From the NCBI GenBank assembly GCA_963718895.1, contig CAVRAG010000008.1, positions 928,001 through 992,000 of the forward strand: a stretch of 64,000 nucleotides of DNA, given 5' to 3'. The notes under the pieces were generated by a model, which was not told the origin of the DNA, made no database searches, and saw nothing but the letters and a program-made list of their open reading frames with translations. This document shows, in pieces, positions 22,599 through 61,002 of this stretch (position 1 is its first letter; each line of letters starts with the position of its first letter). Made by a program: the position numbers and the translations under genes. The DNA comes from an uncultured Nitrososphaerota archaeon. Lineage in GTDB: Archaea; Thermoproteota; Nitrososphaeria; Nitrososphaerales; Gagatemarchaeaceae.

Positions 22599-23072
22599 TT
22601 GTCGAAGATAGCAGTCGGTGACAGAGCACCCGATTTTTCTCTCCATTCCCAGAGCGGAGAGGTCGTCCGCCTTAGTGACTACATCGGAAAGAAGAACGTC
22701 GTCCTCTATTTCTATCCGAAGGACTTCACCGCGGGCTGCACGGCCGAGGCTCGGGGGTTCAGGGACAGCTACCAGGAGTTCCGGGACAGCGAGACCGAGG
22801 TTATAGGGGTCAGCTCCGACAGCGTCGAGACCCATCAGCGGTTCTCCCAGCAGTGCAGCCTCCCGTTCAAGCTTCTCAGCGACTCCGGCAAGGAGCTGCG
22901 GGAGCTCTACGGGGTCTCGTCGACCCTGGGCATGTCGGGGCGCGTGACGTTCGTGATCGACAGGGAGGGCATCGTACGACACGTGTTCTCGTCCCAGCTT
23001 CGACCTACGAAACACATCAACGAAGCCCTGGACGCCCTGAAGGCCGTGAAGAAGACTCTGAGTGCTACCTGA
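22599..23072 (+). CDS. bcp: Peroxiredoxin BCP/PrxQ
   Basis: GDRAPDF, YFYPKDFTAGCTAEA, GVSSD, RVTFVID. Confidence 0.92.
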   Translation: MSKIAVGDRAPDFSLHSQSGEVVRLSDYIGKKNVVLYFYPKDFTAGCTAEARGFRDSYQEFRDSETEVIGVSSDSVETHQRFSQQCSLPFKLLSDSGKELRELYGVSSTLGMSGRVTFVIDREGIVRHVFSSQLRPTKHINEALDALKAVKKTLSAT

Positions 23073-23523
23073 TTACTAGCACGCTGCATGGAGCGTGCGA
23101 GACGAGCGCCCCCGAGACGCTGCCCAAGAGCAGTTTCTTGAACCCGCTCAGGCCCCGGGTCCCTACCACGATGAGGTCGACCCTCCACTCCTGGGCGTAC
23201 TCGGATATCGCCTCGACGACGGATGGGACGTTCTCTGTAATCTCGCCCCGTACCTTGACATCCTGGGCCTCAGCCTTGGAGACGATGCCCCCCACGAACG
23301 CCTCGGCTTCCTTCTTGGCCCTGTCGAAGAACTCCTCCGAGACCGGGCCGGAACCCACCGCGCCCTGGGCTCCCGTCGCCGCGTAGATGGGTGTGGGAAT
23401 CACGCTGAGGACGTAGAGGAGCGCGCCGCTCCTCTTCGCGAGGTCTATCGCCTCATCCGCAGCCCTCGAGGAGTTCGCTGAACCGTCGACCGCGACCAGG
23501 ATACCCTTGAACGAGCTCAACAC
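23065..23523 (-). CDS. Universal stress protein
   Basis: ILVAVDGS, DLIVVGTRG, LLGSVS, PCSVLVIR. Confidence 0.93.
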   Translation of the reverse strand: MLSSFKGILVAVDGSANSSRAADEAIDLAKRSGALLYVLSVIPTPIYAATGAQGAVGSGPVSEEFFDRAKKEAEAFVGGIVSKAEAQDVKVRGEITENVPSVVEAISEYAQEWRVDLIVVGTRGLSGFKKLLLGSVSGALVSHAPCSVLVIR

Positions 23524-23704
23524 GGTCCTAGGCTCGATTCCAACTTATGAAGATAATGGTCGGGTGCGGTCGGAGGTCATGGTAGCTTGGCTCGTGACTT
23601 TCCTAGAACGTAAGTGTCGAAGGTCCGTCGACAAGAGCAAAGCCCGAATTACGGCCTAAATCGACCTAAAAGGTAGGAATCCAACCCGCTTTTGGCAAAA
23701 GGAG

Positions 23705-23806
23705 TGGTGCGGCGTGCGGGATTCGAACCCGCGCAATAGGCTGTCTTCCCCTCATCTTCCGACGAGGGATGGGAAGCCCATATCCTAACCACTGGATCAA
23801 CGCCGC
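23705..23806 (-). tRNA. trnG: tRNA-Gly(CCC) with 27-nt intron at 37/38 (23743-23769), CCA encoded
   Basis: GCGGCGT/ACGCCGC acceptor stem, TGGGC-TTCCCA^A-GCCTA anticodon arm, GCGGG-TTCGAAT-CCCGC T-arm. Confidence 0.93.
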
Positions 23807-23832
23807 GCTGCCCGAGCAACCCTGAGTGCCAG

Positions 23833-23839
23833 TTATAAA
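23833..23839 (-). promoter_or_regulatory. TATA box of intact tRNA-Gly
   Basis: TTTATAA on minus strand, 27 nt upstream of G1. Confidence 0.65.
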
Positions 23840-23905
23840 TCAGGTTTCGCTCGGTCAGAAATTGCGTGTCATTGGCCCATAAATCCTGAATGACCGTGTT
23901 AGCCC

Positions 23906-24310
23906 ATGGACTTGAACGAAGTTGGTACCGTGTTGTATTGGTGTGAAGGCAGCAAGAGAGAAGAGGACTACCGAGTGGAGTTCGTGAACTCAGATCCGAA
24001 GATGGTCGCTGTATTCATGAAGTACATTCGGGCCAAGCACATAGATGAGGCACGACTGAGGATCAGGATGGCAATTCATATCCAGGACGATGAGAGCGAG
24101 TGCAGAAAGTACTGGATGGGAGTCACAGGATTGAGGGACTCCAATTTCATGTGTACGATCGTGAAAGAACAAAGTCTGTGGAAGAAGCCGTTGCCTCACG
24201 GAACAGTGACAATCCGGTACAACTCCATTGCACTGCTTCAGGAGATAAAGCGCGAAATCTTGGTCTTGGCTGAAAAACTCTCGCAGAACTGTACACTGGC
24301 GACAGGCTGA
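23906..24310 (+). CDS. Single-domain LAGLIDADG-like (homing-endonuclease-fold) protein
   Basis: GTVLYWCEGSK followed by VEFVNSDPKMV...YW...G; lower GC than flanks; sits between two tRNA-Gly copies. Confidence 0.55.
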   Translation: MDLNEVGTVLYWCEGSKREEDYRVEFVNSDPKMVAVFMKYIRAKHIDEARLRIRMAIHIQDDESECRKYWMGVTGLRDSNFMCTIVKEQSLWKKPLPHGTVTIRYNSIALLQEIKREILVLAEKLSQNCTLATG

Positions 24311-24372
24311 CTCCCTCCTATCTTCCGACAGGAGATGGGAAGCCTATATCCTAACCACTGGATCACAGCCGC
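24299..24372 (-). pseudogene. Truncated second tRNA-Gly(CCC) (positions 1-48 plus intron; no T-arm or 3' acceptor strand)
   Basis: GCGGCTGTGATCCAGTGGTTAGGATATAGGCTTCCCA-[27-nt intron]-AGCCTGTCGC then diverges. Confidence 0.85.
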
Positions 24373-24398
24373 GCTGCACCGGCAGGCCCGGAGGCCCA

Positions 24399-24405
24399 TT
24401 ATAAA
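24399..24405 (-). promoter_or_regulatory. TATA box of truncated tRNA-Gly
   Basis: TTTATAA, same 27-nt spacing and same GCAGC leader as the intact copy. Confidence 0.6.
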
Positions 24406-24455
24406 TCGCATCTCAGCCTGGTTAAATACGTAATGAGGGGTATCCATGCGAAGCC

Positions 24456-26789: not shown

Positions 26790-27084
26790 CGGGCTGTGTG
26801 TTTGTACCAGCCCTCGAGTTAAAACTATTTGCTGGTCCAGCGCCCGACGCTTATCGGTCAAGCCTGCCCGGTATGATGGAGGCTACGTTCTCGACATGAA
26901 CATGGCGACCTTGTTCACCTTGAAAAGCCGGTCGTCTGCTGCCGAAACAGCAAGCGTCCTCCTTGCCTGCCTATCCGGACACCCTAGCTGCGGAGGGCCT
27001 CTGCCATCCTCACGACCCTGCAGGTCGAACCCGCCGCGCCAGGACGCTATGATCGTCTGGTGAATACTATAAATCAACCCACCC

Positions 27085-27960
27085 GTGCGCGCCACCGTGC
27101 AAAAGGACCTCCTAGACGGCGTCTCGGCGAGGATCAAGGAGCTCGGCAAGGGAGGCTACTCGAGGGTCTACAGGTCCAGCGGCCGCGAGTACCCTGATGC
27201 TCTGCACGTCCTTGTGAGCAGAATCCTGGACGCGGCGGGCGTCGAGTACCGGACCGGCGAGCCAATCTTCCCCGGCTCTCCCAGGCTGGCCGACTTTGCC
27301 GTCGGGGACAGGCTGATCATCCTCGGCGGAGACCTCAGCGCTGACGAGAGGAAGAGGGCCGCCCGCGCCGGGAAGAAGTGCGTCGTGATCGCAAAGAGCG
27401 AGATGCGCAGCGACGTCTTCGACACCGGGACGAGGGTCCTCCGTTCGGGCGACCGCTCGAAGGAGAGGCTTCAGACGATCTTCCTCGACGACCCGTCGTT
27501 CAACTTCGACTATGCACACATCCTCCCCAAGACCGAGAAGTGCTCCGTGATGCACGGGCACACGTCCTCGGTTCTCGTCGAGCTCGTGGGCTCGCCGAGG
27601 GACGGAATGGTCGTCGACTTCAACGACGCCAAGCCGATAATCAGGGAGGCGGTGCGAGGACTCGACCACAAGCTCTTCATCAGCAACAGGTACGTCACGG
27701 GGAGGGAAGGGAGGAGCGTGCTCATAGGGTTCGACACGGTCCACGGGAGGTTCGAGATGAGGGTCCCCGCCAAGACCACCGTCCTCCTCGAGGAGGAGGC
27801 GACCGTCGAGAACCTGGCGCAGGAGCTGGTCCGTAGGATAGCCCCAGGGATGCCCGAGAACGTGGAGGCCGTAGGAGTCTACGTCTACGAGGGCCTCAAC
27901 AAGGGCACCCACCTCCTTGCGCTCATCCATTCGAGAGAGGCCGAGCGGCGACGGAAGTAA
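27085..27960 (+). CDS. queD: 6-carboxytetrahydropterin synthase QueD with ~125-aa N-terminal extra domain
   Basis: FDYAH, CSVMHGH, GMVVDF, LDHK, TVENLA. Confidence 0.85.
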   Translation: MRATVQKDLLDGVSARIKELGKGGYSRVYRSSGREYPDALHVLVSRILDAAGVEYRTGEPIFPGSPRLADFAVGDRLIILGGDLSADERKRAARAGKKCVVIAKSEMRSDVFDTGTRVLRSGDRSKERLQTIFLDDPSFNFDYAHILPKTEKCSVMHGHTSSVLVELVGSPRDGMVVDFNDAKPIIREAVRGLDHKLFISNRYVTGREGRSVLIGFDTVHGRFEMRVPAKTTVLLEEEATVENLAQELVRRIAPGMPENVEAVGVYVYEGLNKGTHLLALIHSREAERRRK

Positions 27961-59654: not shown

Positions 59655-59705
59655 ATTTGGTCACTGGAAGGGCAATTTAATAAAGGATTCTCTTAATAAT
59701 TTAAG

Positions 59706-59803
59706 TGGGCCGGAAGGGATTCGAACCCTCGACCTCTCGATTATCAGTCGAGTGCTCTAGCTAAGCTGCCCGCTCTCTTATCGGAGCTCTGAGCTACCGG
59801 CCC
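59706..59803 (-). tRNA. trnI: tRNA-Ile(GAT) with 23-nt non-canonical D-loop intron (15/16; 59766-59788)
   Basis: GGGCCGG/CCGGCCC acceptor, CTCGA-CTGATAA-TCGAG, GAGGG-TTCGAAT-CCCTT; BHB-like GCTC/GGGC helix. Confidence 0.88.
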
Positions 59804-60904: not shown

Positions 60905-61002
60905 GGGCCGGTAGTTCAGTTGGTACGAACGCCCGCCTTGCACGCGGGAGAAGGCAAACGAGCCTCCCTAGGCCGAGGGTTCAAGTCCCTCCCGGTCCAC
61001 CA
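60905..61002 (+). tRNA. trnA: tRNA-Ala(TGC) with 21-nt variable-region intron (about 45/46; 60951-60971), CCA encoded
   Basis: GGGCCGG/CCGGTCC acceptor with G3-U70, CCCGC-CTTGCAC-GCGGG, GAGGG-TTCAAGT-CCCTC. Confidence 0.9.

Follow-up and report, generated by a model that had tools for sequence, protein, structure and literature searches.

A 0.72-kb unit inside an archaeal tRNA-Gly gene: a LAGLIDADG-like reading frame that probably encodes a homing endonuclease linked to a replacement tRNA

Introduction

The closest described parallel to the locus reported here is found in phage T4. SegB is a free-standing GIY-YIG homing endonuclease encoded in the T4 tRNA cluster; it spreads with neighbouring tRNA genes, and its recognition sequence includes the conserved T-psi-C stem-loop motif of tRNA genes (PMC2330249). 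Here we analyse a stretch of 64,000 nucleotides (nt), the window, from an uncultured Nitrososphaerota archaeon (assembly GCA_963718895.1, contig CAVRAG010000008.1, positions 928,001 to 992,000). Within it a tRNA-Gly(CCC) gene is interrupted by an open reading frame (ORF), ORF1, together with a complete tRNA-Gly(CCC) of another allele type. We propose that ORF1 is probably a divergent, single-motif LAGLIDADG enzyme, most likely a homodimeric, free-standing homing endonuclease directed against tRNA genes that carries a replacement tRNA.

Enzymes of the I-DmoI type are encoded inside rRNA introns, which is why the host gene stays intact after splicing. Introns and fragmentation of tRNA genes have themselves been proposed to shield these genes from mobile elements. 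Our literature search, outside which lay most subscription journals and supplements, returned no description of tRNA-adjacent LAGLIDADG cassettes in archaea or bacteria. In a study of rRNA insertions in the Candidate Phyla Radiation (CPR), the word tRNA occurs zero times in the main text (PMC11270868).

Results

Structure of the locus

The features of the locus, in window coordinates, are as follows.

23705 to 23806, minus strand: complete tRNA-Gly(CCC) gene, named tRNA', with acceptor strands GCGGCGT/ACGCCGC and an encoded CCA
23743 to 23769, minus strand: intron of tRNA', 27 nt
23833 to 23839, minus strand: TTTATAA box of tRNA', at -33 to -27; the same box precedes the tRNA-Gly at related loci
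23906 to 24310, plus strand: ORF1, LAGLIDADG-like with a single motif, 134 amino acids (aa), TGA at 24308 to 24310
23879 to 23884, plus strand: putative TATA-like box ATAAAT of ORF1, 22 to 27 nt upstream of the ATG
24299 to 24372, minus strand: 5' 74 nt of the resident tRNA-Gly(CCC), with acceptor strand GCGGCTG, D-arm, anticodon arm, its own 27-nt intron and variable loop
24399 to 24405, minus strand: TTTATAA box of the broken resident tRNA gene, at -33 to -27
23557 to 23576, minus strand: remnant, decayed, of the 3' end of the resident tRNA-Gly (3' strands of T-stem and acceptor, then CCA), beside the TATA box of the next gene
23577 to 23704, minus strand: about 128 nt downstream of tRNA', between tRNA' and the resident 3' remnant, taken as part of the inserted unit
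23065 to 23523, minus strand: universal stress protein (USP) gene (Pfam Usp, E 7e-35)

Read in the sense of the tRNA genes, a promoter is followed by the resident gene from base 1 to about base 48, then by ORF1 in antisense; a second promoter, tRNA', the 128-nt spacer, the resident 3' end and the USP gene come next. The USP gene represents the flanking chromosome and originally followed closely on the resident tRNA-Gly. The unit of tRNA' and ORF1 occupies 23577-24298, within a resident tRNA-Gly(CCC) of another allele type. An earlier sequence-only reading of the window had placed tRNA', ORF1, the broken tRNA-Gly and both promoters where we find them, and had put the unit at about 0.6 kb; as measured here it comes to about 0.72 kb. 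ORF1 and tRNA' lie on opposite strands with a gap of about 100 nt, and the TGA of ORF1 is the complement of bases within the anticodon stem of the fragment, inside the broken copy as that reading had noticed. A/T-rich boxes occur upstream of the ORF in relatives at the place that matches the putative ORF1 box, and by eye the stretch 23577 to 23704 looks like the sequence downstream of the tRNA-Gly in another genome (locus L009).

The window belongs to a metagenome-assembled genome (MAG; G000) of 3.13 Mb, estimated as 80.5% complete with 5.41% contamination, and the homologues of ORF1 carry the Nitrososphaerales label. Read support consisted of short-read, low-depth contig pieces from four soil runs of two studies, which covered parts of the window and left 23630-23809 uncovered; no RNA data set was listed as covering the window. 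Pieces 24142-24406 and 24287-24437 cross the junction between ORF1 and the fragment at 99% identity or more. They come from two public soil runs, one per study, one of which is possibly the source sample of the window itself. Since the junction is crossed by contig pieces of two runs, the structure is not an assembly artefact.

The two tRNA-Gly alleles and the remains of the resident gene

tRNA' scores 55.8 bits against the Rfam tRNA model. An ARAGORN run that permits introns reports the gene, with an intron of 27 nt at position 38; the default ARAGORN run missed it. The sequence folds as a cloverleaf plus an intron hairpin (-49.8 kcal/mol, z -3.88) and is the sole intact tRNA-Gly(CCC) match in G000. 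The fragment resembles tRNA' from G1 through the variable loop and not beyond, the break falling before the T-stem, with 84% identity over 69 nt. The acceptor strands differ, GCGGCGT in tRNA' and GCGGCTG in the fragment, and the intron stems differ at three base pairs, all three compensated, in agreement with the sequence-only reading. Own promoters and compensatory intron changes indicate that both copies were once functional genes. Neither 27-nt intron contains an ORF; ORF1 is antisense to the broken gene and lies outside tRNA'.

An alignment of the region upstream of the USP gene showed that in all five aligned genus genomes the USP TATA box is immediately preceded by a conserved tRNA 3' end, and the USP gene follows the tRNA 3' remnant in four genus genomes other than that of the window. 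In one of them (G056) the remnant has the sequence ...CAGCCGCACCA, which exactly complements the acceptor strand GCGGCTG in the fragment of the window; relative to it, the remnant in the window shows one insertion and two changes. The resident 3' half therefore lies beyond tRNA', as expected if a cassette had been inserted into the resident gene, which is what had been suggested from the 5' fragment and ORF1.

Matches to tRNA-Gly(CCC) were present in 16 of the 23 genus genomes, two in G000 and one in each of the other 15. The sequence-only reading had anticipated one tRNA-Gly of the GCGGCTG type in relatives lacking the ORF. Those 15 genomes have a single copy; an intact gene of the GCGGCTG type, which would represent the empty site, was found in none of the 301 genomes of the order, among which the exact GCGGCTG-type match is confined to the window's genome. 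At the USP locus genus relatives have only the 3' remnant, and two have another LAGLIDADG_3 ORF with a tRNA.

If two tandem tRNA-Gly genes had existed and one had simply decayed, ORF1 being an unrelated neighbour, each copy would be expected to show its own promoter and compensatory intron changes, as both do. The single copy in every other genus genome with a match means that tandem decay, which the sequence-only reading had named as refuting its interpretation, is not supported. Moreover, the stop codon of ORF1 lies within the fragment, the missing 3' end is on the far side of the complete gene, and the junction of ORF and fragment recurs in 26 of 48 archaeal loci (see below). We therefore regard simple decay as very unlikely.

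tRNA genes are classic integration sites, and the locus could be viewed as the scar left when an integrase placed a larger mobile element in a tRNA gene and duplicated an att site. The duplicated piece, however, is the 5' part of the tRNA, the copies are just 84% identical, and they stand 0.5 kb apart. No integrase was recognised among the neighbouring ORFs, although no search of the window with integrase profiles was made. Three neighbours were scanned against Pfam: the USP gene, an ORF of 118 aa without a significant match, and gene X, described below, with none. On reading alone, one further ORF is peroxiredoxin-like in translation and one of 674 aa appears by eye to be a cyclase/TPR protein. 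An integrase scar is in our judgement barely credible.

ORF1 homologues and tRNA genes in archaea

The relatives of ORF1 number 79 in 90% clusters, and 1,316 cluster representatives match at E up to 0.001; representatives occur in Nitrososphaerales, Patescibacteria, Streptomyces and others. The genomic surroundings were viewed at 77 genome loci and 57 metagenome loci. For the archaeal survey, 48 unique loci were kept from 73. A regular-expression search located a tRNA-Gly(CCC) divergent from the ORF in 39 of them, at a distance of 86-124 nt in 36, and BLAST added three more with the same arrangement. The association of such ORFs with tRNA genes, which the sequence-only reading had proposed to survey, is strongly upheld, in 36 of 48 archaeal loci and in 58 of 67 mostly bacterial loci considered below.

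In 23 of the 48 loci the end of the ORF abuts or overlaps a tRNA piece on the same strand that extends from the T-loop to the tRNA 3' end, and in three (the window, L003 and L132) it abuts an antisense 5' piece, which ends in the variable loop in the window, in the T-loop in L003 and in the T-stem in L132. In all, 26 of 48 loci have at the ORF end a piece of a different tRNA allele, with its break in the T-arm or next to it; in the remaining 22 the fragment was undetected or there was no downstream sequence to inspect. Fragment and carried tRNA differ in 2-4 of 12 bases, and the last base of the T-stem is always among them (20 of 20 comparable loci). The broken gene is of the CCCGC type and the carried one of the CCCGG type in 14 loci, and the types are exchanged in 6, a reciprocal pattern that would fit two or more co-evolving specificities. 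The type of the carried tRNA groups with ORF clades on the ORF tree, requiring 8 changes against a mean of 13.1 after shuffling, with none of 200 shuffles as low; since related sequences share labels, this clustering shows co-inheritance only. The nearest relative of the window's ORF (L109, 76% identity) has its fragment in the opposite orientation, and the equivalent layout is present in L008 on a tRNA that was read by eye as Glu(TTC). Loci without a fragment group in a single clade (support 97/97). A terminal-inverted-repeat transposon, with the 3' end of the carried tRNA and the fragment as its ends, was considered and rejected because the two always differ.

Several side observations were made on the tRNAs of these loci. 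The T-loop reads TCCGAAT in many tRNA-Gly(CCC) genes adjacent to ORF1 homologues (L007, L081, L117, L118, L120, L122, L126-L128, L140, L152 and G056), and TTCAAAT at other loci. U55 is nearly universal in tRNA T-loops, and TCCGAAT puts a C at this position. The carried tRNAs of L006, L008, L109 and L180 (G015) contain insertions in the T-loop region that resemble non-canonical introns and that sit exactly where the fragments of other alleles break. TCCGAAT, TTCAAAT and T-loop introns were each considered as a mark of resistance; a hand tally gave no clear link to intact ORFs, and the idea was dropped. The survey counts exclude the short strings, resembling tRNA 3' ends, that follow the ORF remnants of L089 and L092; the string in L092 is that of another acceptor. 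The contig of L003, labelled as a Terriglobia bacterium MAG, probably represents mis-binned archaeal DNA; it carries the archaeal ORF1, gene X and a tRNA-Gly fragment that has an intron.

Distant homologues and the possible target site

The distant survey comprised 67 loci from Streptomyces, Patescibacteria and others. In 58, a tRNA on the same strand starts between -47 and +29 nt from the ORF stop. This partner is one of six kinds: Gln-TTG in 23 loci, Ser-GCT in 19, Trp-CCA in 10, Met in 4, and Ser-TGA and Ala-GGC in 1 each. In 8 of the remaining 9 loci a tRNA is located just upstream of the ORF. An overlap of exactly 10 nt between ORF and tRNA was observed for all four Met partners and six of the ten Trp partners, and also for an archaeal LAGLIDADG_3 ORF. 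Extra tRNA fragments were seen in 10 of the 67 loci, without systematic placement at the ORF borders.

These data bear on whether the tRNA genes themselves are attacked. ORF1 might instead be a homing endonuclease that recognises the intergenic spacer upstream of tRNA genes, so that the fragments are collateral of nearby breaks and the tRNA merely offers a safe, conserved and well-transcribed landing place. The neighbouring tRNA is complete by ARAGORN in 58 of the 67 mostly bacterial loci, as this explanation would have it, and one genus genome, G054, shows the fragment-free layout and the same tRNA type with the ORF missing, the difference being a clean indel that lies between the promoters of the tRNA and of gene X. 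In that clade (97/97) a spacer-only indel means that the target could be intergenic. Against a spacer target, the partners comprise at least seven tRNA identities whose upstream spacers are unrelated, the conserved element being the tRNA bodies; 26 fragments break in or beside the T-arm; and the T-stem base differs between fragment and carried tRNA in 20 of 20 cases. We judge an intergenic target to be unlikely.

Distribution and arrangements within the genus

ORF1 was found in 15 of 61 family genomes (4 of 22 of high quality) and in 7 of 21 other genus genomes, several copies having stops or frameshifts. In 12 of the 48 archaeal loci the tblastn matches are broken.

A gene of a 158-aa family, gene X, served as context only:

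27076 to 27546, plus strand: gene X, without a Pfam match

Gene X adjoins tRNA-Gly(CCC) in most genus genomes, in divergent or co-directional orientation, as if the tRNA had flipped. The surroundings of tRNA-Gly(CCC) vary accordingly: it may be divergent from gene X without an ORF, have ORF1 in between, or be co-directional. In the window, a weak T-arm-like stretch at about 27015-27045 on the plus strand (10-nt match, E 1.4) occupies the place at which, in relatives, a tRNA 3' end precedes the promoter of gene X. We do not claim it as a third tRNA remnant upstream of gene X, as the match may be due to chance.

At the USP locus, two genus genomes (G032 and G056) have an ORF with a helix-turn-helix (HTH) and a canonical LAGLIDADG_3 domain (E 5.5e-15):

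L099:571-1299 and L101:581-1168, minus strand: second LAGLIDADG_3 ORF, fused head-to-tail to tRNA-Gly(CCC)

The TGA stop of this second ORF is formed by positions 8-10 of tRNA-Gly(CCC). All five of its close homologues in the family end likewise in a tRNA, one of them in a truncated copy with a complete gene nearby.

Elsewhere in the window, a tRNA-Ile(GAT) (59705-59775, minus strand) and a 98-nt tRNA-Ala(TGC) (60905-61002, plus strand), the latter with a probable intron, lie about 1.1 kb apart.

The ORF1 protein

Comparisons of ORF1 with NCBIfam gave nothing usable, phmmer against PDB sequences gave a chance match only, and the named clusters of the ESM Atlas held no usable match. Foldseek against the PDB returned nothing at E of 0.001 or below, the top rows being OmpA-like and YjgF-like. 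Ten of 55 aligned members of the ORF1 family match PF14528 LAGLIDADG_3 individually (best E 0.00029), the next family being matched by 4 of 55, and the family profile matches I-DmoI at its second motif, LYVAEGDK, at E 0.0097. LYWCEGSK of ORF1 aligns with this motif, and its glutamate corresponds to the I-DmoI glutamate that we take to be the catalytic residue. E14, G15 and W70 are invariant in the 55-sequence alignment, and the motif helix ends in a conserved acidic residue followed by Gly, as in the LAGLIDADG superfamily. In an hhalign comparison of the ORF1 family with a single sequence, the second LAGLIDADG_3 ORF, the motif regions align, at a probability of 9% and E 0.0035.

The AlphaFold2 model of ORF1 has a predicted local distance difference test (pLDDT) score of 94.3. 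In a VIA search with this model the best eight of 48,161 chains were all LAGLIDADG proteins, over 79-85 aligned residues and at Z 5.4-6.5, values below 8 and in a range that common arrangements can also give. I-DmoI, I-Tsp061I and I-Vdi141I, all archaeal intron-encoded enzymes, are among the best matches by sequence or fold. Together with the profile match to I-DmoI and the LAGLIDADG_3 matches, these results support the family as LAGLIDADG-like, the designation that the sequence-only reading had given ORF1 and on which it had made its interpretation depend, with fold evidence of moderate strength.

A two-copy model of ORF1 scored 0.52, against 0.01 for the best control, with 81% contact agreement and a pLDDT of at least 84. 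The predicted interface runs through the motif helix and comprises residues 1-14, 30-39 and 121-126, with symmetric contacts 9:9 and 13:13. Of 30 proteins solved as pairs, 20 passed the calibration mark for such models, against 1 of 23 whose structures are single chains. The pass of the ORF1 model may stem from its likeness to solved LAGLIDADG dimers.

The protein data also have to be weighed against the possibility that ORF1 is a domesticated, LAGLIDADG-derived DNA-binding protein, similar to WhiA, that serves the neighbouring tRNA, for example in its transcription, the fragments having arisen by unrelated recombination of tRNA genes. WhiA is among the fold matches (Z 5.9), and longer homologues of ORF1 have added N-terminal HTH_23 domains. 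The archaeal members show high conservation, with a mean column identity of 69% and, among 22 of them, 39 columns that do not vary; ORF1 is present in a single copy per genome, and its spacing to the tRNA is fixed at about 97-100 nt; all of this would suit a cellular protein. The motif glutamate, however, is invariant, and domesticated LAGLIDADG proteins usually lose it. Nor would such a role be expected to leave ORF1 in only 15 of 61 family genomes and 4 of 22 of high quality, some copies with stops, with partner tRNAs whose identity changes among lineages and fragments placed exactly at the ORF end. Domestication thus seems improbable to us.

Discussion

The results allow us to propose how the unit might have come to occupy the resident gene. 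The T-arm DNA, as read from the sequence, is nearly palindromic; this would suit a homodimer and could explain why units are found in both orientations. The ORF1 enzyme would cut the T-arm DNA of ORF-less tRNA alleles, and repair would copy ORF1 along with its linked tRNA. The linked tRNA, the sole intact tRNA-Gly(CCC) in the genome, would let the host survive the loss of its resident tRNA, and the unit could spread. In this scheme we infer nuclease activity, the cut site, discrimination between alleles, resistance of the carried tRNA and spread through repair. The many tRNA identities, the breakpoints in or next to the T-arm and the rule of opposite types fit a homing endonuclease that targets tRNA genes with a spare one linked to it. 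The same reading suits an ORF1 that has kept its motif glutamate and whose distribution is patchy and shows decay.

Several observations weigh against this reading. Even at an E threshold of 10, Pfam contains no match to ORF1 itself, no LAGLIDADG protein is among the Foldseek PDB matches listed, and the modelled order (helix-strand-helix-strand-helix-strand-strand-helix) is not the textbook LAGLIDADG core; with VIA scores in the range noted above, the fold evidence for ORF1 is no more than moderate. High conservation among the archaeal proteins fits a cellular function too. The T-arm of tRNA' is canonical (GCGGG TTCGAAT CCCGC), which leaves the immunity of the carried tRNA unexplained, and the T-loop variants of carried tRNAs have no clear association with intact ORFs in the hand tally. 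At loci of the common layout, no 5' part of the broken tRNA was detected beyond the carried one, and simple insertion therefore does not account for them. The spacer-only indel of G054 belongs here as well. The source genome is a MAG, and some apparent ORF frameshifts are possibly assembly errors.

On balance we still favour the endonuclease. We would tentatively extend this to the relatives of ORF1, which may constitute a large, undescribed clade of single-motif LAGLIDADG-like proteins that parasitise tRNA genes, each cutting the T-arm of one allele type and carrying the opposite type. Such a clade would subject tRNA genes to continual replacement, inversion and scarring, and T-loop introns and unusual T-loops might then be selected as immunity.

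If the mechanism is correct, tRNA genes of free-living archaea and bacteria are attacked by widespread homing endonucleases and the host is spared by a spare tRNA. This would supply a concrete selective agent for the turnover of archaeal tRNA alleles, for flipped orientation, for fragments and for oddly placed introns. The family would also provide compact dimeric nucleases, of about 130 aa, with highly conserved natural targets, and the ORF1 system renders the proposal that introns and fragmentation protect tRNA genes directly testable.

Among LAGLIDADG enzymes, I-DmoI, I-Tsp061I and I-Vdi141I are like ORF1 in being archaeal and in having conserved stable-RNA genes as targets, and they are its best sequence or fold matches. 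They are two-domain monomers within rRNA introns, whereas the single-motif ORF1 is placed outside the functional tRNA and, in the window, antisense to a broken gene. Integrase-type elements likewise use a tRNA gene as target and bring in a replacement for the disrupted part; the ORF1 unit differs in its size of 0.7 kb, in carrying a whole tRNA of another allele, and in that the displaced pieces are not direct repeats. WhiA resembles ORF1 in fold, and bacterial homologues of ORF1 also pair an HTH with a LAGLIDADG-like domain. WhiA is vertically conserved and without the catalytic acidic residues, in contrast to the invariant glutamate and patchy distribution of ORF1.

I-CreI and the enzymes of CPR rRNA insertions such as I-ShaI are single-domain homodimers acting on stable-RNA genes (PMC11270868), the dimer of ORF1 being a model. 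CPR bacteria are rich in ORF1 homologues, as they are in LAGLIDADG rRNA insertions. Enzymes of this type are encoded inside rRNA insertion sequences, whereas the ORF1 family stands beside tRNA genes and ORF1 itself is without a Pfam match.

A direct precedent for the ORF1 unit is SegB, likewise a free-standing endonuclease gene embedded among tRNA genes. The two differ in that SegB is a GIY-YIG enzyme of a phage that acts in phage crosses (PMC2330249), whereas ORF1 is LAGLIDADG-like and resides in archaeal and bacterial chromosomes. Unlike SegB, ORF1 is also paired one-to-one with a single tRNA gene at a fixed spacing and has left broken resident tRNA genes behind. If the proposed mechanism holds, intronless homing of the SegB type would extend from phages into cellular chromosomes, and what is new relative to SegB would be the LAGLIDADG-like family, its cellular setting and the one-to-one replacement of tRNA genes.

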